From NCBI GenBank assembly GCA_965237865.1, contig OZ250164.1, positions 2,440,142 through 2,504,141 of the forward strand: 64,000 bases of DNA. The letters run 5' to 3'. The notes under the pieces were generated by a model. The model saw only the letters and a program-made list of their open reading frames with translations, did not search any database and was not told where the DNA came from. The DNA comes from Dehalococcoidia bacterium. GTDB lineage: Bacteria; Chloroflexota; Dehalococcoidia; UBA2979. The position numbers and the translations under genes were made by a program. Shown here piece after piece: positions 1 through 44,080 of this stretch. The first letter of the stretch is position 1, and the number at the start of each line of letters is the position of its first letter.

Positions 1-173
<173 letters not shown>

Positions 174-177
<4 letters not shown>

Positions 178-1433
178 GATTCGGCCTCCCAGCGTCCGCG
201 GTTGATGGTGCGGCCGGGATCGAACTGCCGCCGCAGCGCGCGCACCAGCGCGCGCTCGCCCTCGCCGAAGGGATCGGCCTCCGCGCGCAGTGCGGGCGGC
301 CCGGCCTCGATCTGCAGGAAGCCGCCGTGCTGCTCGGCGCGGGCGCGCAGCGCGATCACGTCGGAGGCCTCGATGGCGCCTCCCGCCGCGATCACGCTGC
401 CTGCCGTCAGGTGCCCCCAGGCCACGATGCCTCCTGTATCGCTGGTTTCAGTGTCGCTCGTTTCACGGTCGCTGGTTTCAGTGTCGTCGATCGCCTCGAT
501 CGCTTCCAGCGTCGCAGCAACCTCGCTGGCCGGCACGCCGAGGCGCAGCACGACGCCCCGCTCGCCCCCGGCGAGGGCGCGCAGCCGCTCCCACGCGCCC
601 GGCGGCGGCTCGATCGCCGCGCCCCCGGCGCGCTCGACGATCGCCGCCGCGCAGCGGTCCAGCGTCTCCTCGTCGCCCATCGCCTCGAGCAGCGCGTGCG
701 GGTGCGCCTCGAGGCCCGCGACCACAGCGGCCTGCGGCGAGAGCACGGAGAGCGCGCGCAGCGGCAGCGCCAACTCGCGCAGCTCGAAGGCGAGCGCCGC
801 GGCGTCCTCGACGCGCTCGCGGGGCACGGCCAGCGAGCGCGTGGCGGGGGGCAGCGTGGCGAGCTTGAACGAGGCCTCGACGATCACGCCGAAGACGCCG
901 AGCGCGCCGGTGTGCAGGCGGTGCAGGTCGTAGCCGCTGACGTTCTTGACGACGCGCCCGCCCGTGCGCACGAGCTCGCCCGAGGGCGTCGCGACCGTCG
1001 CGCCGAGCAGCAGATCGCGCGCGGCAGGCAGCTGCCCGCGCCAGGCGCCGGGCCGCGCCGTCGCCAGCAGCCCGCCGATCGAGACGCGCCCGTCCGGCGG
1101 CGGGTCGACCGGCAGGTACTGGCCGTACTCGGCGAGCATCGACTGCATCGCGCGCAGGCTCATGCCCGCCCCGACGGTCACGGTCAGGTCGTCCGGCTCG
1201 TAGGCGACGGCGCTATCGAGGCCGGAGAGGTCCAGCGCCACGTCGTAGCGGTCGAGCGGCCGGCCGAGCGAGAGCGCCGTGCGCCCGCCCTGCGGCGACA
1301 CAACCTGCCCCGCCGCGGCGGCCTGGGCGAGCAGCTCCGCGACCTCCTCGGCGGAGCCGGGCCGCCACGCCTGTTCCGGCGTCTTGCCGTCGATCGGGTA
1401 CGCCGCCGGGTCCGGCGCTGCGCCGCTGCTCAT
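174..1433 (-). CDS. glcE: glycolate oxidase FAD-binding subunit GlcE
   Basis: 419-aa ORF with FAD-binding PCMH-type domain signatures (e.g. NVSGYDLHRLHTGALGVFGVIVEASFKL). Operon position between glcD and glcF. Contains a low-complexity (TETSD)n insertion. Confidence 0.85.
437..487. repeat. 15-bp imperfect tandem repeat (~3.3 units) inside glcE, encoding ETSDR/ETSDT repeats
   Basis: Seen directly: gctggtttcagtgtc / gctcgtttcacggtc / gctggtttcagtgtc. In frame (15 bp = 5 codons). Confidence 0.7.
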
Positions 1434-1443
1434 GCCTCGCGGC

Positions 1444-2889
1444 CTAGATGTAGACGCCGGGCGTCGCGAGGTGCCGGCGCACCTCGGCGGCGTGTCCGGA
1501 GGCGCAGCCGTGCCCGGACGGCATGATCTTGCAGGGGTTGAAGGTGTCGCCCGTGCCGAACGCCACGCGCAGGCGCGACATCGCCTCGAGGTCCGCGGGG
1601 GCGAAGATCCAGTCCATGTAGGAGCGCTTCTCCAGGCCGACGCCGTGCTCGCCGGTGATCGAGCCGCCGGCGTCGACGCAGATGCGCATGATCTCGCCGC
1701 CGAGGTCGAGCACGCGCTCGGTCGCGCCCTCGTCGAGCTCGTCGAACATGATGTTGGGGTGCAGGTTGCCGTCGCCGGCGTGGAAGATGTTGGCGCAGCG
1801 GAAGCCGTACTCGTCGGCGAGCCCGTTCACCGCCGCCATCACCTCCGGCAGCTTCGTGCGCGGCACGACACCGTCGAGGATGTAGAAGTTCGGCGAGCTT
1901 GCGCCGATCGCGCCGATCCCGCCCTTGCGCCCCTCCCAGAGCCGCTCCCGCTCCTCCTCGGACTCGGCGACGCGGATCTCGCGCGCGCCCGACCCCAGGC
2001 ACGCCGTCTCGACGCGCTCCACGTCGGCGGCGACCGACTGCGGGACGCCCTCGACCTCGATCAGCAGCACCGCGCCGGCGTCGAGCGGGTAGCCGACGTG
2101 CATTTGCGGCTCGATGATGCGGATGATCGCCTGGTCCAGCATCTCCATCGCCACCGGCAGCACGCCGCCACGGATCACCGCCGAGACCGCCTCCGAGGCG
2201 TCGTCGATGCTGTCGAAGATCGCGAGCATCGTGCGCACGTCGGGTGGCAGGCTGACCAGCGAGACGCAGACCTTGGTGACGATGCCGAGCGTGCCCTCGG
2301 AGCCGCAGAAGACGCCGCGCAGGTCCGGCCCCGGCACGTCCGGCTGCCGCCCGCCGAGCCAGGTCAGCCGCCCGTCCGGCAGCACGACCTCGACGCCGAG
2401 CACGTGGTTGACCGTGCTGCCGTGCGCGAGGGTGTGCGGCCCGCCGGCGTTCGTCCCGACGTTGCCGCCGATGGTGCAGATGCGCTGCGAGGAGGGGTCC
2501 GGCGCGTAGCGCAGCCCGTGCTCGGCGCAGGCGTCCTGCAGCGCGAGGTTGATCACCCCCGGCTCGAGGACCGCGACGCGGTTGACCGCGTCCAGCTCGA
2601 GGATGCGGTTCATACGCGTCAGCACCACGGCCACGCCGCCGAGAATCGGCACCGCGCCCCCCGCCAGCCCCGTCCCGGAGCCGCGAGGCACCACCGGCGC
2701 CCGGTGCCTGCTCGCGATACTGACGGCGGCCGCGACCTCCTCGGCGCTGCCGGGCAGCACCACGGCGTCCGGGCGCGCGCGCTCGATCGTCGCGTCGTAC
2801 TCGTAGCCGAAGAGATCCTCGGGCAGGTGCAGCACGTGCGCCTCGCCGAGGGCGTCCTGCAGCTCGCGGATCAGCTCGTCATTCGCCAT
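1444..2889 (-). CDS. glcD: glycolate oxidase subunit GlcD (FAD-linked oxidase)
   Basis: 481-aa ORF with a FAD-binding domain and a C-terminal FAD-oxidase domain, highly GlcD-like throughout. Lies 10 bp upstream of glcE. Confidence 0.9.
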   Translation of the reverse strand: MANDELIRELQDALGEAHVLHLPEDLFGYEYDATIERARPDAVVLPGSAEEVAAAVSIASRHRAPVVPRGSGTGLAGGAVPILGGVAVVLTRMNRILELDAVNRVAVLEPGVINLALQDACAEHGLRYAPDPSSQRICTIGGNVGTNAGGPHTLAHGSTVNHVLGVEVVLPDGRLTWLGGRQPDVPGPDLRGVFCGSEGTLGIVTKVCVSLVSLPPDVRTMLAIFDSIDDASEAVSAVIRGGVLPVAMEMLDQAIIRIIEPQMHVGYPLDAGAVLLIEVEGVPQSVAADVERVETACLGSGAREIRVAESEEERERLWEGRKGGIGAIGASSPNFYILDGVVPRTKLPEVMAAVNGLADEYGFRCANIFHAGDGNLHPNIMFDELDEGATERVLDLGGEIMRICVDAGGSITGEHGVGLEKRSYMDWIFAPADLEAMSRLRVAFGTGDTFNPCKIMPSGHGCASGHAAEVRRHLATPGVYI

Positions 2890-2911
2890 GAAGCGAGTCT
2901 AGCACCGGCGC

Positions 2912-3280
2912 CCTATCGCCCCTCTCTCTTGGTGAGACGACGGCGAGAGTGAGGGGACCTCCGGCGTGCGCCTACCCCGCCGTTCCCGGCTCCCCCCTCT
3001 CCCTGGGGAGAGGGCGGGGGTGAGGGGCACACCATACTTCCGAGGGGCACGGAGCGTTCGAGGGCGAGCGCGTCCCTCAGTGGGGGGCTGCGCCCCCCAC
3101 ACCCCCATCCCGGAGGAGCGTGCGCTGCGCGCCGCTCGGCCCACCCACCCGCCCTCGGATGTTCTTTCTGTGGGGGCTTCGCCCCCACGCCCCCGTCGGA
3201 TCGGGAGACAAGGCGCCTCTGCCGTAGCGCCCTGGGGTGTCTCTCTCCCTGGAGAGACGGCGAGAGTGAGGGGTCCGCTC
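2912..3280 (+). repeat. dispersed mosaic intergenic repeat element, copy A (full, with core)
   Basis: Core 3082-3196 is GGGGGGCTGCGCCCCCC...GGCCCACCCACCCGCCCTCGGATGTTCTTTCTGTGGGGGCTTCGCCCCCAC. It is flanked by CTCTCCC-N-GGGAGAG hairpins and GAGAGTGAGGGG modules. Near-identical cores occur at 5 other loci in the window. Confidence 0.85.
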
Positions 3281-3284
3281 GAAC

Positions 3285-4325
3285 CTACCCGCCCGCGAGG
3301 CCCGGACCGGCCACCTCGCCGGCGGCGGTCACGACGACGTCGGCGTAGCTGCCCCCGCGCAGCCGCGCGCCCGGCTCGACGAGGGCGCGAATGAGCTCGG
3401 CGTCCTCGATCACGGCGTTGGCGCCGACGACCGTCTCCGCGAGGCTGCAGCCCTCGACCGTCGCGCGCGCGCCGATCAGCGCCGGGCCGGCGATGCGCGA
3501 TTCGCGGACGCGCGCGCCCTCGGCGGCGAGGACCGCGCCGCTGATCTGATTGCCGCCATCCGCGAGCGCCGAGGCACTGCCTGATCCGGAGTCCGCCTCA
3601 ATGCCCGGCAGCAGCCGCGACTGGGCGTGCAGCAGCCCTTCGAGCGTGCCGCCGTCGAGCCACTCGCCGTCGAGCGTCCAGCCGCGCAGCTCGCGGCCCT
3701 CGCCGAGCAGCGCGGCGACGGTCGCGGTGAGGTCGGACTCGCCCTTCGCGTTGATGTAGGGGTTCGTGCGCACACGCTCGACCGCCTCCGGCGCGAGCAG
3801 CCAGAGCCCGACCAGCGCGAGGTTCGAGCGCGGCTGCTCCGGCTTCTCCTCGAGGTCCACGATCCGCTCGCCCTCGAGCAGCGCGACCCCGAAGGCGCGA
3901 GGGTCGTCGACCGCCTGCAGCAGCAGCCCGGCCGTCGCGCCCGAGTCCTCGAAGTGCCGCAGCAGCGCCGGGTCCGCGCCCCGCAGCACGGTGTCGACCG
4001 CCAGCACGGCGACCGTGCGCTCCTCGAGCGCCGCGCCGACCGAGGCGACGGCGTCGCCGGGTCCGTTCGGCTCCCGCTGCACGGCTTCGGAGACCGTGAC
4101 GCCGGGCGGCGCGTGGCTGCGCGCGACCTCGGCGGTCGTCGCGTCCTCGGGACCGACGACCACGGCGATCTCGCGCAGCCCGAGCGAGGCGAGCAGCTCG
4201 AGCGCGTAGACGATCAGCGGGCGGTTGAGCAGCGGGACCAGCGGCTTCGGAGTAGCGGGCGTGATCGGACGCAGCCGCGTCCCCAGCCCCGCGGTCAGCA
4301 CCACGCCAAGCGGCCCTCGCGCCAT
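3285..4325 (-). CDS. sugar-phosphate nucleotidyltransferase (glucose-1-phosphate thymidylyl/uridylyltransferase-like, with C-terminal left-handed beta-helix)
   Basis: N-terminal GVVLTAGLGTRLRPITPATPKPLVP nucleotidyltransferase motif. C-terminal hexapeptide-repeat region. Start chosen at the internal ATG (MARGPLG) preceded by a GGAGGGG RBS; the ORF could extend to 4355. Confidence 0.75.
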   Translation of the reverse strand: MARGPLGVVLTAGLGTRLRPITPATPKPLVPLLNRPLIVYALELLASLGLREIAVVVGPEDATTAEVARSHAPPGVTVSEAVQREPNGPGDAVASVGAALEERTVAVLAVDTVLRGADPALLRHFEDSGATAGLLLQAVDDPRAFGVALLEGERIVDLEEKPEQPRSNLALVGLWLLAPEAVERVRTNPYINAKGESDLTATVAALLGEGRELRGWTLDGEWLDGGTLEGLLHAQSRLLPGIEADSGSGSASALADGGNQISGAVLAAEGARVRESRIAGPALIGARATVEGCSLAETVVGANAVIEDAELIRALVEPGARLRGGSYADVVVTAAGEVAGPGLAGG

Positions 4326-4411
4326 CGTCCGCCCCCCTCCGGGCCAGCATCGCACCGAGGCCCCCGCCCGTCGAATCCGCCCCGCCGGGCCACCGAGGCC
4401 TCACGCGTACA

Positions 4412-7360
4412 ATGATGCCGATGCCGCAAACGACCGAACCGGCCTTCAACAACGAACTCGCGAACGCGCTCCGCGGCAAGCACCCGCGATGGCGCGAGGG
4501 CAATCGCATCGGCTCGGAGCAGACAGGCGTCTTCCAGGACCACCTGGGGCTGCAGCCCGACATCGTAGTCCACCACCCCGGCGGTGCTCCGGTAGTCGTT
4601 GAGACCGAGTTCGAGCCTGCGCGCACAGTCGAGGACGACGCCCGCGCCCGCCTTGGCCTGGTCATCGCGGAGACCGGAGACGCCGTCGAGCAGGCCATCG
4701 CGATCCGCGTCCCGCTCGCTATGCGCGGCGATCAGAGCCACCTCCCCGAACAGATCGCCGCCGCAGAGTTCCGCTACTGCGTCTTCACCCACCGCGAGGG
4801 CGAGCCGCACGATCCCCTGCGCTGGCCCAAGTCGGGCTGGCTCAGCGGCGGCATCGACGACCTCGCGGGTCTGATCGAGCAGACCGCCCTCTCCGAGCGC
4901 CGCATCGCCGAGGGCATGCGCATCCTCGAGGAAGGTGTGGGACAGGCCGCCGCCCGCCTCCGCTCCAACCTCGAACACGATCGGCCCGGCGTGCTGGCGC
5001 AGATCGCCGAGGCGCTCCACCAGGAGGGAGGGGAGCAGACCTCGCGGATGGCGATGGCCATCGTCGCCAATGCACTCACCGTTCACACGAGCATCGCTGG
5101 TGCCCACGACATCCCCCCGCTCGACGAACTGCGCGGCGCCCGCGGGCAGTTGTTGAAGACGAGGGTGCTGGCGACCTGGCGCCGCATCCTGCACGAGATC
5201 AACTACTGGCCGATCTTCAGGATCGCCTCGGACGTGCTGCTGCCCATTCCGAACGGGACGGCGGGCGCGGTGCTTGAGCGCCTGCACGCGGTCGCCGCCG
5301 AGCTCGACGGCATCGGTGTGACCAGCACGCAGGATCTGGCTGGGCAGATGTTTGGCCGGCTGATCACAGACCGGAAGTTCCTCGCGACGTTTTACACGCT
5401 CCCGTCCTCGGCGGCGCTGCTCGCCGAACTCGCTGTCTCGCGGCTGGATGTCGACTGGCCGGATGCCGAGGCGGTGAAGGCGCTGCGCATCGCCGACCTC
5501 GCCTGCGGCACGGGCGTGCTGCTCGCTGCCGCCTACCGCGCGACCGCAGCACGCCACCGCCGCGCCAACGGTGATGACGAGGCGCTGCACCAGGCGATGA
5601 TGGAGCATGCGCTGATCGGCGCCGACATCATGCCCGCCGCCACGCACCTGACCGCCTCGATGCTGTCGAGCGCGCACCCGACCGTGACGTTTGGCAACAC
5701 GCGGGTCTACACGATGCCGTACGGCAGGCAGGGCGAGGAAGCTGGCGACGCCATCGCCATCGGGTCGCTCGACCTTATCGAGAGCGACACGATGCTGGCC
5801 TTGTTCACCACCGGGCGACAGGTTCTGCGCGGTACGGGAGCAGACGAGGAGGCCGAGGGCTTCCAGGAGCTTGTGCTGCCCACCGCCACTGCCGACCTCG
5901 TGATAATGAATCCGCCCTTCACACGACCGACGAATCACGCGGGCATCTACGGGGTACCGGTGCCATCGTTCGCGGGATTCGCGACGACCGACGACGAGCA
6001 GGCGCATATGGCAGCAGCCCTGAAGGGCATCCGCGGGCGACTGACTGACCCTGCGGGCGACGGCAACGCAGGGCTCGCGTCCAACTTTCTCGATCTGGCG
6101 CATCAGAAGGTCACGCCCAAGGGCGTCCTGGCGCTGGTGCTGCCGCTTACGGTGATCTCGGGCGGATCGTGGTCGGCGGCACGCCGCCTGCTCGCGCGCC
6201 ACTATCGTGATGTCACGGTCATTGCTCTGGCCACGACGGGACAATCCACGCGGGCGTTCTCGGCGGACACGGGCATCGGCGAGGCGCTGATCGTGGCGGT
6301 GAAGCGCGACGAGCCGAATGAAGCCGGGGAGGACGATGGCGAGGCGAACTGTCCCACGCTGTACGTCAACCTCGTGCATCGACCGCGGAGCACGGTCGAC
6401 GCTGGGGAAGTCGCTCGCGCGATAGCACAGCTTGCGAATCAAGAGACCGGCTTCATCCACAGCGGTGATGACGAGGTCGGCTGCTACATCCGCGCGTCGC
6501 TTGCGGACGGCGGCTGCGCCTCGCTCCGTGAGCCGCACGTCGCCGCCGCCGCGCTCGGCCTGCCGCACGGCTCACTGCGCCTGCCACGGCTGCCCGAGCC
6601 GTTCGAGATCCCGATCGCCAAGCTCGCCGATCTCGGCGAGCGCGGCCTGGTTGACCGCGACATCGCCGGCGAGGAGCGGAACAGGGCCGGGGTGCCGCGC
6701 GGGCCGTTCGATGTCGTGTTCCGCCGCACCGGGCGAGCCGCGTACCCCATGCTCTGGGGGCATGACGCGAACCGGGAGCGGCGGCTCGCGGTGGAGCCGG
6801 ACAGCGAGGGGCGCGCGCGGCCGGACAGCGACGCGCGGGCGGTCGCTGTCTGGGAAACGGCCACCCGGCTGCACCTCAACCGCGACTTCCGCCTGAACTC
6901 GCAGAGCCTCGCCGCGTGCCTCACGCCGGAACGATCGATCGGCGGCAGGGCGTGGCCGAACTTCAGCGTCGAGGGCGATGCGCGTCGCGAGGAGGCGCTC
7001 GCGCTCTGGGCGAACACCACGCTTGGGCTGATCTGCTTCTGGTGGATCGCCGGGCGGCAGCAGCAGGGTCGCGCCATCCTGACGATCTCGAACCTGCCGT
7101 CGCTGCCGGTCCTTGACGTGCGAGAACTCGACGCGCGACAACTCGGGATCGCTGCGCGAATCTTCGAGGACTTCCGCGACTGGACGTTCCTGCCAGCCAA
7201 CGAGGCGTACCGCGACGACACGCGGAAGGCGCTCGACCGCGCGGTCCTGTGCGACCTGATTGGCCTGCCGGAGTCGATCCTCGAACCGCTCGACGTGCTG
7301 CGCGAGCAGTGGTGCGCGGAGCCGACGGTGCACGGCGGCAAGTCCACGCGGCCCACGTAG
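4412..7360 (+). CDS. large standalone N6-adenine DNA methyltransferase-domain protein (candidate Type IIG/IIL restriction-modification enzyme)
   Basis: 982-aa ORF. SAM-binding motif I (RIADLACGTGVLLAAA) lies upstream of catalytic motif IV (LVIMNPPFT), i.e. gamma-class amino-MTase order. TFYTLPSSAALLAEL matches the motif-X-like region. About 340 aa of N-terminal and about 350 aa of C-terminal (putative TRD) extensions flank the MTase core. No separate R or S genes nearby. Confidence 0.7.
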   Translation: MMPMPQTTEPAFNNELANALRGKHPRWREGNRIGSEQTGVFQDHLGLQPDIVVHHPGGAPVVVETEFEPARTVEDDARARLGLVIAETGDAVEQAIAIRVPLAMRGDQSHLPEQIAAAEFRYCVFTHREGEPHDPLRWPKSGWLSGGIDDLAGLIEQTALSERRIAEGMRILEEGVGQAAARLRSNLEHDRPGVLAQIAEALHQEGGEQTSRMAMAIVANALTVHTSIAGAHDIPPLDELRGARGQLLKTRVLATWRRILHEINYWPIFRIASDVLLPIPNGTAGAVLERLHAVAAELDGIGVTSTQDLAGQMFGRLITDRKFLATFYTLPSSAALLAELAVSRLDVDWPDAEAVKALRIADLACGTGVLLAAAYRATAARHRRANGDDEALHQAMMEHALIGADIMPAATHLTASMLSSAHPTVTFGNTRVYTMPYGRQGEEAGDAIAIGSLDLIESDTMLALFTTGRQVLRGTGADEEAEGFQELVLPTATADLVIMNPPFTRPTNHAGIYGVPVPSFAGFATTDDEQAHMAAALKGIRGRLTDPAGDGNAGLASNFLDLAHQKVTPKGVLALVLPLTVISGGSWSAARRLLARHYRDVTVIALATTGQSTRAFSADTGIGEALIVAVKRDEPNEAGEDDGEANCPTLYVNLVHRPRSTVDAGEVARAIAQLANQETGFIHSGDDEVGCYIRASLADGGCASLREPHVAAAALGLPHGSLRLPRLPEPFEIPIAKLADLGERGLVDRDIAGEERNRAGVPRGPFDVVFRRTGRAAYPMLWGHDANRERRLAVEPDSEGRARPDSDARAVAVWETATRLHLNRDFRLNSQSLAACLTPERSIGGRAWPNFSVEGDARREEALALWANTTLGLICFWWIAGRQQQGRAILTISNLPSLPVLDVRELDARQLGIAARIFEDFRDWTFLPANEAYRDDTRKALDRAVLCDLIGLPESILEPLDVLREQWCAEPTVHGGKSTRPT

Positions 7361-7432
7361 CCGCGCACCCCGCGGGGCGCGAGCGGCTATCATCGCCGCG
7401 GCGCTGCCGCGCGGCGCAGGAGCGGGGGCGGG

Positions 7433-9814
7433 ATGCTGCTGCGAGGGCTCAACGTCGTCGAGATCTCAGCGAGCGGGGCCGCTGCGTGGGCCACGAAGGA
7501 TCTCGCCGACTGGGGCGCGAACGTCGTCGTCCTCGAGCCGCCCGAGGGCAGCCCGCTGCGCGCCGAGCCGCCCTGGTACGAGCGCGAGGGCGAACGCCGC
7601 AGCGCCACCTGGCAGTGGCTCTCGCGCGGCAAGACCGTCGTCGCCGCCGGGCCCGATCTGGCGACGACGCCAGAGGACGCACTCGCGCTCTGCCGCGACG
7701 CCGATCTCGTCGTCGCGGAGCACGAGCCGCTGGCCGCGCTGCTCGGCCTCCGCCCGGCCGAGGTGCGCGCCGCGCTCGAGGGCCACAGCGTCGTCGTACG
7801 CATCGCCGCCTTCGCCCCGGACGGGCCGTACGCGCACTACCGCGCGACGGACCTCGGGATCTGCTCGCTTGGCGGCTGGGCGGGGATGCTGGGCGCGCCC
7901 GATCGGCAGCCGCTGCGCCCGGCGGGCGACCTCGGGACGCGCGCGACGGGGCTGCACGCCCTCGCAGCGGCGCTGTTCGCCCTGCGCCACCGCGAGCGCG
8001 GCGCGGCGCCCTCGTTCGTCGAGGTCTCGGCGCAGGCGGTCGCCGCCGCGCTGCTGACCAGCCCCTGGCTGGCCTACAGCATGTTCGGGACGACTGGCTT
8101 CCGGCGCGCAGCGACCTGGCCGAACGCCTCCGTGCGCTGCAAGGACGGCCACGCCGGCATCCTCCCGCTCACCCACCAGCACTGGGCCTCGCTCTGCGAG
8201 GTGACCGGCATCGCCGACGTGCTCGATGAGCCCGGCGGGCGCGAACTGAGCTACCGCCAGGAGCACGGGGCGGAGCTGTGGGAGCGCGTCCACGAGTGGT
8301 ACGAGCTGCGCACCCGCGAACAGGTCTACTTCGCCGGCCAGGCCGTGCGCGTCCCCTCCGGGCCCGCCGACAGCGTCTCGCAGCGCCTCGCAGACGCGCA
8401 TCTGGAGGCGCGCGGCTTCTTCGAGCGCGCCGTCGTCGACGGCGTGATGCTGCGCGTGCCGCGCGTGCCCTACCGCATCGCGGGCGCTCCGACGCTGCCG
8501 CGCGGCGCGGCGGTCGAGGAGCAGCGCGCGAGCTTCGCGCCCGGCGATGCCGGCACCGCCAGCGACGCCGAGCCGCCGGCGCTGCCGATGGAAGGCGTGC
8601 GGGTGATCGACCTGACGTGGTTCTGGTCCGGCCCCCACGCCACGATGAACCTCGGCGCGTTCGGGGCGGACGTGATCAAGGTCGAGTCGGTGAGCCGGCC
8701 GGACTCCTACCGCTTCACCGGCGCCGCCGCCGGGGAGTCGCAGGCCTGGGAGCGCAACTACCTCTGGAACGACTCCAACCAGAACAAGCGTGGGCTCACC
8801 GTGGACCTCAACACGGAGACCGGCCGGGGGCTCTTCGAGCGGCTGCTGCGCGAGGGCGACGTGATGGTCAGCAACTTCTCGAACCGCGTGCTGCCGAACC
8901 TCGGCTACACCGCGGAGCGCCTGCACGAGATCAACCCGCGGCTGATCAGCGTGACGATGCCGGGCTACGGCCCGGACGGCCCCTGGGGCGACTTCGTCGG
9001 CTTCGGCAGCACCTTCGAGCAGGCCGTCGTCGCGACGATGAACGGCTACGCCGACGACGACCAGCCGCGCCTGATCGGCGGCGCCTGCGACCCGCTCGTC
9101 GGCATGAACGCCGTCGTGGCGATCCAGCTCGCGCTGCGCCATCGCGAGCAGTCCGGCCTCGGCACGACGGTCGAGGTGCCGCAGTGCGAGGTGCTGGACG
9201 CGATGTTCGGGCCGGAGCACATCGCCGTGCAGCACGGCGCGCCGGACCCCGGCCTGCGCGGCAACAAGCACGACCGCATGGTCCCGCACGAGGTCTACCG
9301 GACGGCCGGCGAGGACGCCTGGATCAGCATCGCCGTCGACAGCGACGATCAGTTCGCCGGGCTCGTGAGCGTGCTCGGTCAGCCCGCGCTGTCGGACGAC
9401 CCGCGCTTCGCGAGCGCAGGGGACCGCAAGGCCAACGAGGAGGACCTCGACGCGATCGTCGCCGACGCCGTCCGCGAGCGGGAGCCGCTCGAGCTGGAGG
9501 CGGCGCTGCAGGCGGTCGGCGTCGCCGGCTGCCGCGTCACGCCGCCTCACCGGCTGACGGAGGACGTGGGCCTGCGGCACTTCGGCTTCTTCCAGGAGCT
9601 CACGCGCGAAGTGACCGGCACGCACCTCTACAAGACCTTCCCCTTCCGCTTCAGCGGCTTCCCGGCCGCCCACCGCAGCACCGCGCCGCTGCTCGGCGAG
9701 CACAACCGCGAGGTGCTGAGCGAGCTGCTCGGTCTCGGCGAGGAAGAGCTGGACGCCCTCGAGGCGGCGGGCGAGATCGGCACGACGCCCTCCTGGTCGC
9801 CCACGCCGACGTAG
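7433..9814 (+). CDS. tandem-fused family III CoA-transferase (two CaiB/BaiF domains in one polypeptide)
   Basis: 793-aa ORF. Residues ~1-370 and ~390-793 each resemble CaiB/BaiF family III CoA-transferases. The second domain has the conserved GACDPLVG active-site region. Confidence 0.75.
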   Translation: MLLRGLNVVEISASGAAAWATKDLADWGANVVVLEPPEGSPLRAEPPWYEREGERRSATWQWLSRGKTVVAAGPDLATTPEDALALCRDADLVVAEHEPLAALLGLRPAEVRAALEGHSVVVRIAAFAPDGPYAHYRATDLGICSLGGWAGMLGAPDRQPLRPAGDLGTRATGLHALAAALFALRHRERGAAPSFVEVSAQAVAAALLTSPWLAYSMFGTTGFRRAATWPNASVRCKDGHAGILPLTHQHWASLCEVTGIADVLDEPGGRELSYRQEHGAELWERVHEWYELRTREQVYFAGQAVRVPSGPADSVSQRLADAHLEARGFFERAVVDGVMLRVPRVPYRIAGAPTLPRGAAVEEQRASFAPGDAGTASDAEPPALPMEGVRVIDLTWFWSGPHATMNLGAFGADVIKVESVSRPDSYRFTGAAAGESQAWERNYLWNDSNQNKRGLTVDLNTETGRGLFERLLREGDVMVSNFSNRVLPNLGYTAERLHEINPRLISVTMPGYGPDGPWGDFVGFGSTFEQAVVATMNGYADDDQPRLIGGACDPLVGMNAVVAIQLALRHREQSGLGTTVEVPQCEVLDAMFGPEHIAVQHGAPDPGLRGNKHDRMVPHEVYRTAGEDAWISIAVDSDDQFAGLVSVLGQPALSDDPRFASAGDRKANEEDLDAIVADAVREREPLELEAALQAVGVAGCRVTPPHRLTEDVGLRHFGFFQELTREVTGTHLYKTFPFRFSGFPAAHRSTAPLLGEHNREVLSELLGLGEEELDALEAAGEIGTTPSWSPTPT

Positions 9815-9857
9815 GCGCGCCGGGCACGCGGCGGTACCGTCGCGGTATCCTCCGGAC

Positions 9858-10475
9858 ATGGTCACGGACCTCGCGAATCCCGGGCTGAAGGAGTGGGCCG
9901 TCGTCGTGCGCGCGCTGCGCGATGGCCGGCAGATCATCGACCTGCGCAAGGGCGGCATTCGCGAGGAGGGCCACCGCTTCCGCGTGCGCGCCTCGCGCTT
10001 CTGGCTCTACGAGAGCTACGAGCACCAGCGCCCGGAGCTGATCCGCCCCTCCGAGCGCCCGCTGATCGAGGCCGTCGCCGCCTCGGCGCCCGCGGCGGGC
10101 GAACTGCGCGTCGATGCCTGGGCGGAGATCGCGGAGACGGCGGCGCTGACCGAGCCGGAGCAGGTGGCCGCGCTCGACGGGCAGCACATCTGGACCGCGG
10201 ACTACGCGGAGCAGCGCTTCCGCTGGCGTCCGAAGGCGCCGCTGATCGTGCTCGTGCTGCGCGTGCACCGCCTCGCGGAGGCGCTCACCGTCCCGATCCG
10301 CGAGCACTACGCCGGCTGCACCTCGTGGACGCCGATGGCCGACCTGCCGCCCGACCCGCGCGAGGCCGCCTCCGCGCCCGTCCTCGACGACGCCGCGTTC
10401 GAGCAGCGCCGCGCCGAGCTTCACGCAGCGTTGCCGGGCATCGCCTTCGGCCCGCCGCAGATCGAGGACGAGTAG
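9858..10475 (+). CDS. conserved hypothetical protein (DUF1802-like)
   Basis: 205-aa ORF with a protein-like composition and the KEWAVVVRAL...IIDLRKGGIRE N-terminus. No recognisable catalytic motif. Confidence 0.55.
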   Translation: MVTDLANPGLKEWAVVVRALRDGRQIIDLRKGGIREEGHRFRVRASRFWLYESYEHQRPELIRPSERPLIEAVAASAPAAGELRVDAWAEIAETAALTEPEQVAALDGQHIWTADYAEQRFRWRPKAPLIVLVLRVHRLAEALTVPIREHYAGCTSWTPMADLPPDPREAASAPVLDDAAFEQRRAELHAALPGIAFGPPQIEDE

Positions 10476-10507
10476 CGCGGGCGCGCGGCAGGGCACCCGG
10501 ACCACCG

Positions 10508-10870
10508 TCCGATCCCCTCTCCCCTGGCGGGAGAGGGTTAGGGTGAGGGGGATTCCGGGCGCCGCAGCGCCCTCCGATCCCCTCTCCCGCGGCGGGAGAG
10601 AGGGTCAGGGGACTCCGAGGCCGATCGCGTGTCGCCTGCAGGGGACTGCGCCCCCCACACCCCCATCCCGGACGAGCGCGCTGCGCGGCTCTGGCCCACC
10701 CACCCACCCTCGGATTTCTTTTCTGTGGGGGCTGCGCCCCCACGCCCCCACCCGGATCGGCAGCCGGAACAGAGCCTCGAGGGCGCGCCCTCCGATCCCC
10801 TCTCCCGCCAGGGGAGAGGGTGAGGGTGAGGGGGACTCCGGGCGCCGGAGCGCCCTCGGAACGGGAGTTA
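10508..10870 (+). repeat. dispersed mosaic repeat element, copy B (full, with core 10641-10752)
   Basis: Core GGGGACTGCGCCCCCCACACCCCCATCCCGGACGAGCGCGCTGCGCGG...TTCTTTTCTGTGGGGGCTGCGCCCCCAC. Three CCCCTCTCCC-N-GGGAGAGGGT(G/T)AGGG modules. Sits between convergent gene ends. Confidence 0.85.
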
Positions 10871-10929
10871 CGCAAAGGTCTCGCGAGGGAGAGCGGGAGC
10901 CGGAAGCGGAGGGACCGGAGGGCGTGCTT

Positions 10930-11679
10930 CTACTGGCCCTGCCAGACGGGGTCGCGCTTCTCGGCGAAGGCCTTCGGGCCCTCCTTCGAGTCTTCCGAGG
11001 CGTGCACGACCTTGCTGACCCAGGTGCCGAGGCGAAGCGCCTCGTCGATCTTGGCCAGCCGCCACTCCTGGATCTGCGCCTTTGTGCCCTCCACGGAGAG
11101 CGGGGCGTTCTCGATAATCATCTCCGCGATCTCGATCGCCCGGGGGATCAGTGCGTCCGGTTCGAGCACCTCGGTGACGATGCCCCACTCCAGCGCCTGC
11201 TGCGGCTCGATGCGGTCCGCGGTGAGCAGGATGTAGTTGGCCGCCGAGAGCCCGATCACCCTCGCGAGGTGCTTCGTCGCGTAACCGGCCATGATCCCGC
11301 GCTTCGGCTCGAACAGGCCGAAGTAGGACGCCGTCGAGCAGATCCGGATGTCGCAGTCGAGTGCGGTCTCCATCCCGCCGCCCACGGCGAGCCCGTTGAT
11401 GGCCGCGATGAACGGCTTCGAGTTCCCCGAGTACGGATAGGTCGCTCCGAACTGCCCCTTGAAGGTGCCCTCCGCCATCTCCCGGAGGTCGCCGCCCGCG
11501 CAGAACGCGCGCCCGGAGCCGGTCACGATGCCGACGCGCATCTTCGGGTCGTTGCTGAAGTCCTCGATCGCCTCGGTCAACTGGTTGATCAACTGGCCGC
11601 CGAGGGCGTTGAGCCGCTCGGGGCGGTTGTAGGTGAAGATCGCGTAGTTGTCGCGCTTGTCGTAGATCAGGTCCGGCAT
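10930..11679 (-). CDS. enoyl-CoA hydratase/isomerase (crotonase family)
   Basis: Crotonase fold signatures (AFCAGGDL, LAVGGGMETALDCDIRI). Start set at MPDLIYD (ATG 11677-11679) with a GGAG RBS. The upstream part of the 415-aa ORF is a non-coding extension. Confidence 0.8.
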   Translation of the reverse strand: MPDLIYDKRDNYAIFTYNRPERLNALGGQLINQLTEAIEDFSNDPKMRVGIVTGSGRAFCAGGDLREMAEGTFKGQFGATYPYSGNSKPFIAAINGLAVGGGMETALDCDIRICSTASYFGLFEPKRGIMAGYATKHLARVIGLSAANYILLTADRIEPQQALEWGIVTEVLEPDALIPRAIEIAEMIIENAPLSVEGTKAQIQEWRLAKIDEALRLGTWVSKVVHASEDSKEGPKAFAEKRDPVWQGQ

Positions 11680-11760
11680 CGCCGCATCTCCTCGCTCGCG
11701 CGCGCAGGGTACCCTGTCGGGGCGGCCAATGGGCAGGCCGCACGCGGGGCGGACGGGACG

Positions 11761-12339
11761 ATGGTTGATTCGACAGACGTGGCCCTTCACCTGGACCTCG
11801 AGCGCCTGGAGGCGGGCCTCGACCACATCCGCCGGTCCCCGGCGGACGACGGCCTGCTCCTGATGATCGTCAGACGGCCCGACGTCGACCGGCGCGAGGT
11901 CGTCGAGGAAGGCGGCCTCGACGTTGCGGTCGGCCTCGTTGGTGACAACTGGAAGGACCGCGCAAGCTCGAGCAGCGCCGACGGCGGACCACATCCCGAG
12001 GCGCAGCTCACGATCATCAACTCCCGCGTGCTCGACCTCGTGGCGCAGTCCGGGGACCGCTGGCCGCTCGCAGGCGATCAGCTGGTGATCGACCTCGACC
12101 TGAGCGCGGAGAACCTGCCGCCCGGGACGCGCCTGTCCATTGGCTCCGCGGTGATCGAGATCACCGCGAAGCCGCACACCGGCTGCGCGAAGTTCGCCGG
12201 CCGCTTTGGCAACGACGCGCTCCGCTTCGTCAGCACCCCGCTGGCGATGGAGCTGCGCCTGCGAGGCGTCAACACCCGTGTCGTGCAGTCGGGCACGATC
12301 CGCGCCGGAGATGCGGTCGCGAAGATCGCGGCGCCATGA
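11761..12339 (+). CDS. MOSC domain-containing protein
   Basis: C-terminal PGTRLSIGSAVIEITAKPHTGCAKFAGRFGNDALRF is typical of MOSC (MoCo sulfurase C-terminal) domains. ATG 11761. Stop overlaps the next gene (ATGA). Confidence 0.75.
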   Translation: MVDSTDVALHLDLERLEAGLDHIRRSPADDGLLLMIVRRPDVDRREVVEEGGLDVAVGLVGDNWKDRASSSSADGGPHPEAQLTIINSRVLDLVAQSGDRWPLAGDQLVIDLDLSAENLPPGTRLSIGSAVIEITAKPHTGCAKFAGRFGNDALRFVSTPLAMELRLRGVNTRVVQSGTIRAGDAVAKIAAP

Positions 12340-12791
12340 CCGACGAACGCGCCGACAGCGGCCCGGAGAGCGGCGCGGACAACCGGCAGGACGCGGTCCT
12401 CGAGGCCAACGCGGCGTTCTACCGCGCTTTCGCCGAGCGCGACCTGGAGGCGATGGACCGGCTCTGGGCGCGCGAGGCGCCGGTCGCCTGCACGCACCCC
12501 GCGTGGACCGTGCTGACCGGGCGCGACGACGTGCTGAAGAGCTGGGAGGGCATCCTCACCAACCCGGACGCGCCGACGATCGAGGTGCGGGACGCCATCG
12601 CGCACCGCCTCGGCGACACGGCGATCGTGCTCTGTCGCGAGATCGTGCAGGGCGCGCCGGCCGAGGCGACCAACGTCTTCGTGCTCGAGGGCGGCGAGTG
12701 GCGCATCGCGCACCACCACGCCAGCGCGATCGCGCGCTTCCTCGTCTCCCGCTCCGTGGAGACGGACCCCTTCCGCGACCGCCGCAACTAG
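12336..12791 (+). CDS. SnoaL-like/NTF2-like (DUF4440-type) protein
   Basis: 151 aa with an NTF2-like fold composition. The last 37 nt, including the stop, lie inside the left 72-bp direct repeat. Confidence 0.65.
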   Translation: MTDERADSGPESGADNRQDAVLEANAAFYRAFAERDLEAMDRLWAREAPVACTHPAWTVLTGRDDVLKSWEGILTNPDAPTIEVRDAIAHRLGDTAIVLCREIVQGAPAEATNVFVLEGGEWRIAHHHASAIARFLVSRSVETDPFRDRRN

Positions 12792-12826
12792 CGACGGTTG
12801 TCCGCCGCTACAGCGCGAGGCCGGGC
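12755..12826. repeat. 72-bp perfect direct repeat, left copy (attL-like), bounding the low-GC island
   Basis: Identical to 15527-15598: cgtggagacggaccccttccgcgaccgccgcaactagcgacggttgtccgccgctacagcgcgaggccgggc. Contains the convergent stop codons of the SnoaL-like and ybaK-like genes and an imperfect hairpin TAGCGACGG-ttgt-CCGCCGCTA. Confidence 0.9.
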
Positions 12827-12855
12827 CGCCGCCACGCCCGATGTCGATGCTCAGT

Positions 12856-13407
12856 CTATTCTCTTGAAGCCTCGATCTCCTTGTCTAGAGAGCGGGCTGT
12901 CAGATTTGCAACTATGGACTTGACATCTAAGTTCCGGAGTCGCAGGTATGCAGATATTTCTGGGATAACAGTAACTGATTCTTTGCCCACGCAACTCAAG
13001 CGCAAATGCGTGTTCAATTCTGCGGTTCTTATTGCGATCTCGAGTACAGCAGGCGGTGCGAGTACGTAAAGGCCTACTGCATGAGGCAACCCAGAATCAT
13101 GCACGAGTGCAGTCGGAGAAACCAGTACTGGTAAAATATGCGCCTTCTCATCTCCATCAGCTAGATTCTTTCTCACCCAGTTCACATGGCCCGTAGCCTC
13201 GAGCAATTCAGTCTTCGAGAGTTTCGAGCCCGGGCTCTTGCCGGTCTTTGCTTCGAACACTAGATGAGTCCCGTCAGAGAACGACCAAACGCAATCCGGT
13301 GCGCCATCGTCGGTGGGACGGCTCGTATCAGCGCCAAGCGCATTGCCCAACTCTTCGAGCCCCTGATGATAGGGGGTAGCTTCCGCCTGGCCAAGCCTCC
13401 GAAGCAT
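12856..13407 (-). CDS. PD-(D/E)xK nuclease-like small protein (island gene 2)
   Basis: Canonical PD...(14 aa)...EAK motif (GAPDCVWSFSDGTHLVFEAKTG). First in-frame ATG is 13405-13407. The open frame continues protein-like up to the helicase stop (13520) with a strong GAAGGAG SD overlapping that stop, so the true start may be non-canonical or the two ORFs may be a frameshifted fusion. The ORF-track extent to 13668 begins at TTG inside the helicase. Confidence 0.55.
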   Translation of the reverse strand: MLRRLGQAEATPYHQGLEELGNALGADTSRPTDDGAPDCVWSFSDGTHLVFEAKTGKSPGSKLSKTELLEATGHVNWVRKNLADGDEKAHILPVLVSPTALVHDSGLPHAVGLYVLAPPAVLEIAIRTAELNTHLRLSCVGKESVTVIPEISAYLRLRNLDVKSIVANLTARSLDKEIEASRE

Positions 13408-13519
13408 TTCTGCCTTGCGGTTCTCAAACTGGGGACCTGCCCATCCGGCAGAATCGAGATATGCCCAAACTTCCTCCTCATTGTCGGCAAGCTCACTATC
13501 CTGGCCAATCTCTTCTCCT

Positions 13520-15430: not shown

Positions 15431-15526
15431 CGTGACCTCTCACAGCATTCGCCATCGCAATTCACGGACCATTGGGTCTAGAACAGTCTACCGTGGCACA
15501 TGCCATCTGAGCGTTTCGCGCTGAGG

Positions 15527-15598
15527 CGTGGAGACGGACCCCTTCCGCGACCGCCGCAACTAGCGACGGTTGTCCGCCGCTACAGCGCGAGGCCGGGC
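15527..15598. repeat. 72-bp perfect direct repeat, right copy (attR-like)
   Basis: Identical to 12755-12826. Contains the authentic 3' end of the ybaK-like gene and a remnant 3' end of the SnoaL gene. Confidence 0.9.
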
Positions 15599-16071
15599 AC
15601 GACCTCGGCGTTCGGGAGGCGCAGCAGCGCCGAGGGCGCGACCGCGAGCTTCGTCGAGCGGCCGCCGCCGCCCACGATCACCTCGTCGAGGTCCATGACG
15701 CGCTCGTCGATGTAGAGCGCCAGATCCTCGGGCAGGCCGAACGGGGTGACGCCGCCGATCAGCATGCCGGTCAGCTCGCGCGTCTCCTCGGGCGAGGCGA
15801 ACGAGGCCTTGCGCACGCCCAGCAGCGGGCGCACCGCGTGGTTGACGTCGAGCCGCGTGGTCGCCAGCACGAGGCAGGCGCAGTAGCGCAACTCGCCGCG
15901 CTTGGAGACGACGATGATGGTGTTGCCGGAGGTCTCCGGCGGGTAGCCGTAGTGCTCGCAGAACGCCGCCGTGTCCGCCAGTTCCGGATCGACCTCGATC
16001 AGCTCGTAGGACTCGCCGAGGGCGTCCAGCGCCGCGAGGGCGCGCGCCGCCGGGTCGTCGCCGGACGTCAT
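15580..16071 (-). CDS. YbaK/ProX-like aminoacyl-tRNA (Cys-tRNA(Pro)) deacylase
   Basis: 163 aa with a YbaK-fold signature (IIVVSKRGELRYCACLV...GMLIGGVTPFG). Confidence 0.75.
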   Translation of the reverse strand: MTSGDDPAARALAALDALGESYELIEVDPELADTAAFCEHYGYPPETSGNTIIVVSKRGELRYCACLVLATTRLDVNHAVRPLLGVRKASFASPEETRELTGMLIGGVTPFGLPEDLALYIDERVMDLDEVIVGGGGRSTKLAVAPSALLRLPNAEVVPGLAL

Positions 16072-16182
16072 CGCTCGCTCCCGTCGCTCAGTCGCCGACC
16101 GGTGGTGCGCAGCCGCACCCGGCCACGTTGCGTGTTAGCTCGCATGTGCTACTCTCCGGTCCCGAACTCACCAGGAGGAATC

Positions 16183-17492: not shown

Positions 17493-17543
17493 CTGCTCCT
17501 CGTCCTCGCTGTCCGCGCCGATCTCGCCGCCGTCGGGCTGGCG

Positions 17544-29409: not shown

Positions 29410-29850
29410 TCATCCCCGAGAGAGGGGCGCGGGCACCCGCTCTCCCCGGGGGGTGAGGGCCACGCCATACTTCCGAGGGCCAAGGAGCCTTCGAGGGCAG
29501 GCGCGCGTCTCCTGTGGGGGGCGCAGCCCCCCACGCCCCCATCCCGGACGAGCACGCGCTGCGCGCCGCTCCGGGCCCACCCACCCGCCCTCGGATTTTC
29601 TTTCTGTGGGGGCAGAGCCCCCACACCCCCGCCGGATCAGCGCACGCGGCGTGGCCTTCGCGGGCGCACCGAACTCCCGATGGCGTCCGGCTCCCTCTCC
29701 CCGAGTGGGAGAGGTGGGGGTGAGGGGTCCGCCGCGCGCCAGCGCGGCCAGCGAGGGCAGACGAGACCTTCGAGGGCAGGCGATGACGGAAGACCGGTCC
29801 AGGGCCAGGGCGCTCCGGCTCCCTAACCCCAGGGAGAGAGGGGGCCGGGC
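29410..29850 (+). repeat. dispersed mosaic repeat element, copy E (full, core 29514-29632)
   Basis: Core GGGGGGCGCAGCCCCCCACGCCCCCATCCCGGACGAGCACGCGCTGCGCGCCGCTCCGGGCCCACCCACCCGCCCTCGGATTTTCTTTCTGTGGGGGCAGAGCCCCCAC, plus hairpin and GTGAGGGG modules. Confidence 0.85.
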
Positions 29851-43759: not shown

Positions 43760-44080
43760 GTGGGGAGCGGAGGGGTCGAGGGTGAGGGCTTACCTGGGCG
43801 CGAGGAGGGGTCGGGAGCAGCGAGAGACGCCCACCGGTCCAGGCGGGGGCGTGGGGGCTCCGCCCCCACATGGAAGAAAGAATCCGGGGCGGGTGGGTGG
43901 GCCGAGCGGCGCGCAGCGCACGCTCCTCCGAGATGGGGGGGGTGCGGGGGCCGCACCCCCCAGACAGACGCACAATCGCTCTCGAAGGCTCCTTGCCACC
44001 CGGAGGTATGGCGTGCCCCTCACCCCCGCCCTCTCCCCCGGGAGAGGGCGCCGGACCGCCCTCGAACGGGAGTTTCGCGA
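43760..44080 (-). repeat. dispersed mosaic repeat element, copy F (reverse orientation, core 43843-43972)
   Basis: Reverse complement of the core: ...CCCCCATCTCGGAGGAGCGTGCGCTGCGCGCCGCTCGGCCCACCCACCCGCCCCGGATTCTTTCTTCCATGTGGGGGCGGAGCCCCCAC. Plus a CTCTCCCCCGGGAGAG hairpin. Confidence 0.85.

Follow-up and report, generated by a model that had tools for sequence, protein, structure and literature searches.

The stretch of DNA analysed here (the window) comprises 64,000 nucleotides (nt) from a Dehalococcoidia bacterium of the Chloroflexota (contig OZ250164.1, positions 2,440,142 to 2,504,141), in which a hairpin-rich repeat core occurs five times between genes. Probably, in our view, this core and the smaller modules surrounding it belong to an undescribed, lineage-wide family of mosaic extragenic repeats in high-GC Chloroflexota, similar to the repetitive extragenic palindromic (REP) sequences and bacterial interspersed mosaic elements (BIME): a DNA-level hairpin repeat that lies mostly behind genes and supplies targets to insertion sequences (IS) of the IS110 family. 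An earlier note, made from the letters of the window alone, had proposed a non-coding, dispersed mosaic family of the REP/BIME type or of the type of miniature inverted-repeat transposable elements (MITE), with one copy hit by an IS110 element, and this umbrella reading is supported, an accessory module being what IS110 targets. Absent from that note are two features described below, namely that the conserved centre of the core is a G-quadruplex (G4)/C-tract motif and that the loops of its hairpins flip.

Core copies in the window and across the lineage

The 17-mer GGCCCACCCACCCGCCC, with at most two mismatches allowed, matches the window five times, at 3138, 10693, 20790 and 29574 on the + strand and at 43887-43903 on the - strand, against a chance expectation of 0.04 from dinucleotide-preserving shuffles. 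Exactly five cores are also found by an nhmmer profile built from four core copies (E-values 1e-17 to 1e-31), and the coordinates agree with those at which four + copies and one inverted copy had been placed before. The window has a G+C content of 72%; the core alignment shows no diffuse GC-rich similarity, consisting of long invariant blocks with variable loops and spacers in between. The C-rich strand defines the + orientation of the core, and its hairpins are called H1, H2 and H3. The copies are as follows.

3066..3200 (nhmmer 3081-3200), + strand: core copy 1, with lead-in CGTC..CAG and H1 GGGGGG-CTGCG-CCCCCC, then a C-rich tract
within 3066..3200, + strand: H2 of core copy 1, GAGCGTGCGC-TGC-GCGCCGCTC
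3140-3154, + strand: 15-mer of core copy 1, CCCACCCACCCGCCC, a G4 motif on the - strand, with a T-rich spacer next to it
within 3066..3200, + strand: H3 of core copy 1, GTGGGGGC-TTC-GCCCCCAC, with tail GCCCCC
10641..10755, + strand: core copy 2, H1 imperfect and H2 short; 15-mer at 10695-10709 is the linker variant CCCACCCACCCACCC
20715..20853, + strand: core copy 3, H1 collapsed; 15-mer inside 20792-20807
within 20715..20853, + strand: apical insertion in H2 of core copy 3, about 32 nt, with its own hairpin GCGGGG-ATA-CCCCGC
29515..29636, + strand: core copy 4, H1 loop flipped (CGCAG), H3 loop AGA; 15-mer at 29576-29590
43838..43960, - strand: inverted core copy 5, whose 15-mer has its G-rich strand on the + strand at 43886-43901

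To follow the family beyond the window, one genome per species was scanned with the pattern CCCACCCACCCNCCC-N10-26-GTGGGGGC-NNN-GCCCCCAC. Matches fell in at least 108 eight-kb blocks, nearly all from about nine long-read 'Dehalococcoidia bacterium' metagenome-assembled genomes (MAGs) with chromosomes of 3.1-3.6 Mb, and several related blocks are syntenic with the window at 88-94% nucleotide identity, which makes the source of the window a close relative. All family-wide counts given below refer to the window and 108 such blocks among the matches listed, 928 kb in all. In this sample nhmmer finds at least 181 core matches, including 73 distinct full-length cores; the family is therefore genome-wide and lineage-wide and does not reflect local duplication. 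Database searches gave no known counterpart. Rfam 15 has no match at the repeats when the whole window is searched at the gathering threshold, and for one copy searched at E up to 10 it returned sub-threshold, chance-level matches only, which answers in the negative the Rfam check suggested earlier. The core pattern has 0 matches in viral contigs, blastn of a core found nothing in 72,556 plasmids, and a literature search for the exact motifs found no bacterial description.

The core measures about 120-150 nt, has a fixed polarity and consists of three GC-rich hairpins with C-rich single-stranded tracts between them. Read from its 5' end, a lead-in (..GCGCGTC-N-CCTG) is followed by H1 (GGGGGG-CTGCG-CCCCCC) and the single-stranded tract ACACCCCCATCCCGGA, then by H2 (GAGCxxGCGC-TGC-GCGCxGCTC), GG and the 15-mer, and finally by TCGGA, a T-rich spacer, H3 (GTGGGGGC-NNN-GCCCCCAC) and the tail GCCCCC-GCCGGATC. 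One unit of about 21-25 nt, a G5-6 hairpin with a C5 tail behind it, occurs twice in the core, as H1 and as H3. Around one quarter of the copies have an H2 with an apical insertion of about 32 nt that forms a hairpin of its own (GCGAGG-GATA-CCTCGC or GCGGGG-ATA-CCCCGC), and H1 is absent from 38 profile matches, which begin at H2. The two hairpins recognised previously are thus both real, while the core has three, H2 having been missed; likewise, the G6-CTGCG-C6 hairpin formerly ascribed to the 5' end of every core is clean in two of the five (3082 and 29514); the copies at 10641 and 43843 have an imperfect one, and in the copy at 20708 it is collapsed.

The core element is non-coding, as the earlier note had thought likely. 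Copies are distinguished by indels of 1-2 nt, by an H2 that varies in length (17-28 nt) and by the insertion of about 32 nt, and because these changes are not multiples of three and break the frame, the embedded peptide is not kept and a coding role is ruled out.

Accessory modules

Smaller modules, designated A, B, C, D and M1, join the core in variable order, all of them in the orientation of the core within the window. The A-module reads CCCTCTCCC-N4-GGGAGAGGG-GGGGGTGAGGGG, the B linker CCATACTTCCGAGGG..TTCGAGGGC, the hairpin of the C-module CCGCCGCGCGCCAGCGCGGC and the D motif TTGCGAAACTCCCGTTC. Their positions in the window are listed here.

2921..2958, + strand: M1 module, left arm of an imperfect direct duplication of about 35 nt around an insert of about 290 bp
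2993..3027, + strand: A-module, hairpin CCCTCTCCC-TGGG-GAGAGGG followed by GGGGGTGAGGGG; G4 motif on the + strand of the core; IS110 target type
3032..3065, + strand: B linker, CCATACTTCCGAGGG..GGAGCGTTCGAGGGC, joining the A-module to the core; also at 29465-29498 (+) and 43978-44011 (-)
3239..3276, + strand: M1' module, right arm of the same duplication of about 35 nt at core copy 1
10515..10550, + strand: A-module; a second, degenerate A-module at about 10576-10612
10798..10834, + strand: A-module, 3' of core copy 2
10859-10875, - strand: D motif, TTGCGTAACTCCCGTTC, near core copy 2
18968..19071, + strand: module-only locus, with a D motif at 19018-19034 and, up to the IS110 junction, the left A-module half with GGGAGAG at its end
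20565..20602, + strand: right half of the split A-module, GGGCGGGGGGTGAGGGG, then the C-module hairpin CCGCCGCGCGCCAGCGCGGC
29691-29727 and 29729-29748, + strand: A-module and C-module, 3' of core copy 4
43978-44011, 44016-44048 and 44064-44080, - strand: B linker, A-module and D motif, 5' of core copy 5 in the orientation of the element

The locus at 18968-19071, which had been taken for a split partial copy of the core, contains accessory modules only, the core being absent from it.

Apparent constraint on the 15-mer and on H2

The most conserved part of the core, the 15-mer CCCRCCCRCCCRCCC, has the form CCC-R-CCC-R-CCC-R-CCC, and its variation is almost confined to the three linker positions. 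In 169 copies, from loci gathered by a pattern that contains the motif, linker positions 4, 8 and 12 show 15, 9 and 31 changes, respectively, as against 0-3 at each of the 12 C positions, and nearly all linker substitutions exchange A and G, in either direction. We therefore also counted 60 copies found via the 5' half only, in loci retrievable regardless of the motif; the four C3 tracts are kept in 52 of them, and 22 of the 30 variant copies differ in linkers only. At the sequence level the complement, GGG-Y-GGG-Y-GGG-Y-GGG, is a G4 motif with one-base loops. The canonical motif GGGYGGGYGGGYGGG is present in 5/5 window cores and in those 52 of the 60 copies, the five short-loop G4 motifs of the 64-kb window are all cores, and 11 of its 13 canonical G4 motifs (about 5 expected in total) fall in repeat modules. 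The A-module carries a G4 motif of its own, on the strand opposite to that of the core's and overlapping the A-module hairpin. Folding of the G strand GGGCGGGTGGGTGGG into a K+ quadruplex is predicted from the motif; the target of the constraint may be a G-quadruplex, a C-tract-binding factor or a C-rich RNA.

H2 shows a sign of constraint of another kind. All 46 short variants (46/46) fold to a hairpin of 9-10 bp, and their stems fall into the compensatory classes GAGCG..CGCTC, GAGCC..GGCTC, GAGCAC..GGCTC and GGGGG..CCCC, which represent few independent events with a shifting bulge. In the RNAalifold consensus fold of 53 cores, H1 and H2 are mis-paired and the covariation term is -0.03; this lack of signal arises because the H1 and H3 stems are invariant, hence uninformative on covariation, and because the bulge of H2 moves. 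The alignment and folding proposed in the earlier note has thus revealed compensatory classes in H2 and, in the consensus, a covariation of about zero. The G-rich strand folds more stably in 73/73 cores, a difference that is silent on the functional strand because G-U pairing predicts it.

Cores are 91% identical between orthologues, 87.6% between paralogues of the same genome and 87.3% between non-orthologous copies of different genomes; divergence appears to plateau because only some positions can vary.

Hairpin inversion and copy-number change between close relatives

The hairpin loops point to events at the DNA level. Among 130 H3 loop triplets, 126 belong to five reverse-complement pairs (TGC 50/GCA 12, TCC 21/GGA 11, TTC 14/GAA 2, TAC 10/GTA 1 and TTT 3/AAA 2), and the H1 loop likewise reads either CTGCG or CGCAG. 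A reverse complement of three bases cannot come from independent point changes, so that repeated inversion of the hairpin, an event at the DNA level, is indicated.

Among species about 90% identical the core repeat has been gained, lost, tandemly duplicated and internally deleted. The site orthologous to window 2889-3285 holds no core and a single M1 in related locus L096, one core in the window, one in L085 and two in L100, the insert of about 290 bp between the M1 modules of the window being absent from L096. About 30 orthologous intergenic pairs are unequal in core number (e.g., 3 vs 7, 1 vs 4 and 2 vs 5), with numbers at orthologous sites spanning 0 to 7 and several clean cases of 0 versus 1. 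At one locus a composite unit of about 225 nt is present in tandem duplicate, and in one relative the core is deleted exactly between H1 and H3. Synteny between L047 (2863 onwards) and the window (38947 onwards) stops near the L047 core at 3355-3470, and the repeats may lie at rearrangement breakpoints.

Comparison of filled with empty sites shows direct duplications flanking the insertions, with lengths of 8, about 22-35, about 36 and about 39 nt. The earlier note had proposed looking for duplications at the ends of copies; they exist, with variable lengths of 8 to about 39 nt. The 8-nt duplication GGCTAGCG copies the stop codons of both convergent genes (L028 2516-2523 vs L073 1102-1411), and that of about 36 nt copies the last 12 or so codons together with the stop (L057 6052-6088 vs L102 4443-4691). 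Both of these insertions leave the flanking gene ends intact, the L102 gene now ending in the diverged left copy. The duplication of about 35 nt is the M1 module itself (window 2921-2958 and 3239-3276). The variable length argues against a classical transposase; the duplications fit template switching, slippage or recombination among repeated hairpin modules, and an enzyme is also possible. Flanking genes differ from copy to copy, and the genes between neighbouring cores are ordinary metabolic genes or an IS110 element, none of them a core-bracketed transposase in the 928 kb.

Genomic context and orientation

Cores lie preferentially between convergent genes. The 114 element-bearing intergenic regions comprise 61 convergent, 41 tandem and 12 divergent ones, the approximate background being 130, 447 and 113, so that convergent regions make up 54% of those with an element versus 19% of the background. 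The previous impression that copies sit between convergent, divergent and tandem genes alike is accurate for the five window copies, and it does not hold overall, convergent regions being strongly over-represented in the 114. Regions with an element have a median length of 528 nt, versus 76 nt for intergenic regions overall.

Orientation follows the convergent genes as well. Mixed-orientation arrays between convergent genes are arranged '+...-' in 12/12 cases, which turns the 5' end of every core towards the gene that runs into the region. Where a convergent region has a single copy, the 5' side is the one closer to a stop codon in 33 versus 14 cases (p=0.008). An orientation linked to the replichore, as expected of single-strand insertion of the IS200/IS605 type, was rejected, + and - copies being interspersed along four chromosomes. 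Intrinsic (Rho-independent) terminators were rejected as well; no hairpin of the cores has a U-tract behind it, and a T-rich tract precedes H3 on the C-rich strand while an A-rich one follows on the other. Canonical hairpin-plus-T terminators in window 1-20000 number 4, versus 4.4 expected, and none of the four lies in the repeat regions scanned. No promoter-like sites were found in or beside the scanned copies. With this context an effect on transcript 3' ends, which we infer, is compatible.

An IS110 element and its target module

The A-module is the landing site of an insertion sequence.

19072..20564, - strand: IS110-family insertion sequence of 1493 bp, transposase at 19093-20316, which splits an A-module into a GGGAGAG half and a GGGCGGGG half

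In Pfam the transposase of this element hits DEDD_Tnp_IS110 (1.7e-38), with matches to PF01548 and PF02371. For the copy in the window and six further ones in related loci (7/7), the insertion point is the same, with GGGAGAG of an A-module on one side and GGG(C)GGGGGTGAGGGG on the other, and the target can be written CTCTCCC-N4-GGGAGAG|GGGCGGGGGTGAGGGG, with insertion at the bar. As for the earlier proposal that IS110 had targeted one of the repeat copies, it holds in that a repeat module is hit, 7/7; the module concerned is the accessory A-module and not the core.

Several sequences in and around the element deserve mention. In the 5' non-coding region of the IS (20317-20564, - strand), CCAGGGAGAGACC has the 7-mer GGGAGAG in common with the target, and CTGGGGTGTCG resembles the IS end CCTGGGGTGT; both are compatible, as motifs, with candidate guide segments of a bridge RNA. 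The 19-mer GCGCCCTGGGGTGTCTCTC at 3227-3245 (+), before M1', is the same as the real junction of IS110 end and target (compare 19067-19085), and sequence of this type also occurs in L085 at about 7350-7375 and in L100 at about 3830-3850, at the orthologous site, and is absent from L096; judged by its letters, the one beside core copy 1 looks like the relic of an IS110 end. The sole match in the window at Rfam gathering score is Ms_AS-4 ('Actinobacteria sRNA', where sRNA denotes small RNA; 62.9 bits, 19411-19492, + strand), which lies antisense inside the open reading frame (ORF) of the transposase (19093-20316, - strand) and probably reflects conservation of the transposase gene and not a separate sRNA.

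The 3' module in unrelated bacteria

The genome scan, in two MAGs outside the lineage, and a search of metagenome contigs with a variant pattern brought to light the 3' part of the core in other settings. In an Oscillospiraceae MAG (L023) the motif lies between an ORF putatively RelA/SpoT-like and a second ORF, antisense to both; from its N-terminal sequence alone, the second is a putative D-aminoacyl-tRNA deacylase (dtd). In a Vampirovibrionales MAG (L051) it stands directly after a stop codon, co-oriented with that gene. The 111-kb metagenome contig PVBE010746133.1 has a dispersed family of its own, which numbers five copies within 15 kb, differs in its 5' part and has in common with the Chloroflexota core CCCACCCACCCGCCC, the T-rich spacer, the G5 hairpin and the C5 tail. 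Its hairpin stem varies yet stays paired (GTGGGGGC/GCCCCCAC vs CGGGGGGT/ACCCCCCG), its copies are co-oriented with the upstream gene in 4/4 determinable cases, and a C3 tract is broken in two of them. Rfam has no match on these outsider loci. By a back-of-envelope estimate, well below one exact cross-lineage match is expected by chance in the whole collection; the matches are few, among those listed, and of low complexity (CCCAC-type units), and the recurrence may have come about through horizontal transfer or independent origin.

A probable REP/BIME-like mosaic family and the evidence that weighs against it

If the core is a REP/BIME-like repeat, template switching and recombination mediated by hairpins or repeats, or else an enzyme acting in trans, would spread its copies and reshuffle them, and the copies would persist at sites where insertion is harmless. 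Cores transcribed into 3' untranslated regions (UTRs) could, through their stable hairpins and their C-rich, G-poor tract, influence the formation of transcript 3' ends, be it by termination or insulation between convergent genes or by protection against exonucleases, as proposed for REP/BIME.

Several observations weigh against this reading. A lineage-specific repeat fails to explain why unrelated MAGs have the same 30 specified bases. Paralogues within a genome are no closer than copies of different genomes, leaving no trace of recent bursts, and the plateau of divergence suggests constraint on individual copies, which is not predicted for a purely selfish repeat. Neither a REP-associated tyrosine transposase (RAYT) was found (tblastn, E<3, in the window and 108 blocks only, 928 kb, with an E. 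coli RAYT sequence as the query), nor any other dedicated transposase in the 928 kb sampled, and the GTAG tag of REPs is missing, a GTGG lying inside the H3 stem. Per copy, tandem-gene regions show no orientation bias (27 co-oriented vs 24 antisense), both tandem-context copies of the window are antisense to the genes, which weakens a simple role as 3' UTR or terminator, and no U-tract follows any hairpin in either orientation. As for method, the loci were gathered by a pattern containing the 15-mer, an ascertainment bias for which the 60-copy recount is only a partial remedy, and genes were called with our own caller based on G+C at third codon positions (GC3), so that the context numbers are approximate.

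The family would matter in several respects. As a repeat system not described before, it belongs to an uncultured high-GC lineage of Chloroflexota and forms much of the long intergenic regions there; it marks where the genomes of close species change rapidly in structure, and it supplies landing pads for IS110, an element of the bridge-RNA type. Selection-like conservation of a G4/C-tract, flip-flop loops, variable duplications that include stop codons, and a 3' module in unrelated lineages are together unusual. Sequence evidence for purifying selection on a bacterial G-quadruplex/C-tract motif is scarce, and the family, with variation almost confined to the three loop positions in well over a hundred copies, offers many natural replicates; the cross-lineage recurrence of 30 specified bases, if real, points to a shared recognition factor.

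Alternative explanations

The core might instead be a cis-acting RNA or small-RNA family on the C-rich sense strand, i.e., a portable Rho-type terminator or 3'-UTR module, with loading on the C-rich, G-poor tracts and with H1-H3 as pause or protective hairpins. We hold this to be unlikely, with a small yet appreciable probability. It would account for an H2 kept through compensatory changes, for C tracts conserved far more than the linkers, for the 5' end turned towards the incoming gene in convergent regions (both mixed arrays and single copies), for the co-orientation of the PVBE010746133.1 family and the L051 copy that begins right after a stop codon, and for canonical intrinsic terminators that are not above chance. 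It sits badly with the near-zero RNAalifold covariation (to which the invariant H1 and H3 are neutral), with the Rfam negatives at gathering and permissive thresholds, with the lack of a promoter-like site in or beside the scanned copies, with tandem contexts free of orientation bias, and with the loop flip-flop, a DNA-level event. For the structured RNA that the earlier note had listed as one of its candidates, compensatory change in H2 only thus stands beside the absence of an Rfam match, and its support is weak.

Starting from the outsider loci, one could also propose that (C3-R)3-C3, the T-rich spacer, the G5 hairpin and C5 constitute a functional unit conserved across distant bacteria, possibly a new, orientation-dependent gene-end signal, which we consider rather unlikely. 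What selection would then preserve is a G-quadruplex with one-base loops or the recognition of C tracts; candidates for the signal are termination or insulation of the G4 or Rho type, or the recognition site of a nucleic-acid enzyme that also spreads it.

Closely related to this is the idea that the functional unit would be a conserved DNA or RNA G-quadruplex adjoining a G5 hairpin, recognised by a widely conserved protein or serving as a polymerase roadblock, with the repeat merely its vehicle. The limitation of variation to three loop positions, which stay pyrimidines on the G strand, the coincidence of the cores with all short-loop G4 motifs of the window (and of repeat modules with 11/13 canonical ones), the exact recurrence of CCCACCCACCCGCCC, spacer, G5 hairpin and C5 in the Oscillospiraceae and Vampirovibrionales MAGs, the separate PVBE010746133.1 family with its co-varying stem and the precedent of G4-hairpin motifs in E. 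coli intergenic repeats (PMC5100583) all agree with it. A C-tract-binding protein or a Rho-type site would, however, yield an identical pattern of conservation, the C3 tract is broken in two PVBE010746133.1 copies, and the few low-complexity cross-lineage matches could stem from independent origin or horizontal transfer; we rate this G-quadruplex explanation as improbable.

It is more improbable still that the core is a classical MITE, a non-autonomous deletion derivative whose terminal hairpins H1 and H3 are recognised by a transposase in trans. Presence/absence and copy-number polymorphism at orthologous sites, direct duplications around insertions, including the clean 8-nt GGCTAGCG, and a single palindromic unit at both ends would be expected of such an element. 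The duplications, however, lack the fixed length of transposase-made ones, neither a core-bracketed transposase gene or parent element nor a RAYT match emerged from the 928 kb (RAYT searched by tblastn with an E. coli query), copies within a genome are no closer than those between genomes, and many copies (the 38 matches that start at H2) have no H1.

Finally, an artefact of generic GC-rich low complexity or of local segmental duplication, either of which the earlier note had named as what would overturn its reading, has practically no probability despite the 72% G+C and the motifs rich in C and G runs, being refuted by the 17-mer count (5 vs 0.04 expected), the invariant alignment blocks, the nhmmer E-values and the pattern scan, with hundreds of copies at non-syntenic sites of other genomes and differing flanking genes.

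Other features of the window

Apart from the repeats, the window contains five tandem paralogous small ORFs of about 131-149 aa at about 49016-51190 (-), repeating every 430 bp or so with nucleotide identities of 60-80%, and adjacent to one another at 46822-47883 and 47958-49019 (-) two paralogous ORFs of 353 aa, 92% identical over the 300 nt compared. The region 12000-16000 has a G+C content of 62-63%, versus about 72% elsewhere, with a GC3 of 0.64 in the ORF at 13520-15325, and may have been acquired horizontally. The ORF that stops at 29400 (+), shortly before core copy 4, has the C-terminus ..CDGTHRPAGFESAPRAE (window 29300-29400), which resembles a CDGSH-type iron-sulfur domain.

Comparison with known repeat systems

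REPs are located behind ORFs, with convergent or unidirectional genes on either side (PMC3733652). The REP/BIME of Enterobacteriaceae and Pseudomonas (PMC3733652) are, like the family described here, short GC-rich palindromes, high-copy, extragenic and mosaic with other motifs; they too lie downstream of ORFs, occur in paired inverted arrangements, vary in content among relatives and are targets of the IS110 family. The differences are nonetheless considerable. In place of a single palindrome of 20-40 nt there is an array of three hairpins, 120-150 nt long, with long invariant single-stranded C tracts; the core carries a G4 motif with selection-like conservation; and the GTAG tag and a RAYT, the latter in 928 kb, are not found. 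CGTC or TGTC stands about 10 nt 5' of H1 in many of our copies, but unlike the stems described for CGTC REPs, theirs do not begin with A/T pairs.

Targeting of REPs by IS110-family elements is known (PMC1525189, PMC11208160), and IS110/IS1111 target sites in REPs are recognised via bridge or seek RNA (PMC1525189, PMC11208160, PMC11187229). The 7/7 insertions, all at an identical point in a repeated palindromic module, conform to this, whereas the target here is the accessory A-module and not the core.

MITEs have in common with the core the presence/absence polymorphism at orthologous sites, and differ from it in their fixed-length target duplication and in terminal inverted repeats that match a parent. 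Modular intergenic repeats are further represented by pneumococcal BOX, Neisseria Correia/NEMIS, enterobacterial ERIC and the small non-coding repeats of Deinococcus, which resemble the family in being 100-200 nt long, modular, strongly structured by prediction, co-transcribed with neighbours and restricted to lineages. Their sequences are unrelated, however, and fixed terminal inverted repeats or a fixed target duplication are not features of the family described here. To our knowledge, the C3-tract/G4 module and its spread outside the lineage have no counterpart among these modular repeats.

G4-hairpin motifs do occur in E. coli intergenic repeats (PMC5100583), and a G4-forming repeat is enriched in Xanthomonas and Nostoc (PMC4692102). 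What connects these to the Chloroflexota family is G4-capable sequence in conserved intergenic repeats, with alternative hairpins; what separates them is sequence and architecture, the G4 of the core being a single (G3Y)3G3 block beside a hairpin, whereas in the A-module, unlike the core, hairpin and G4 truly overlap.

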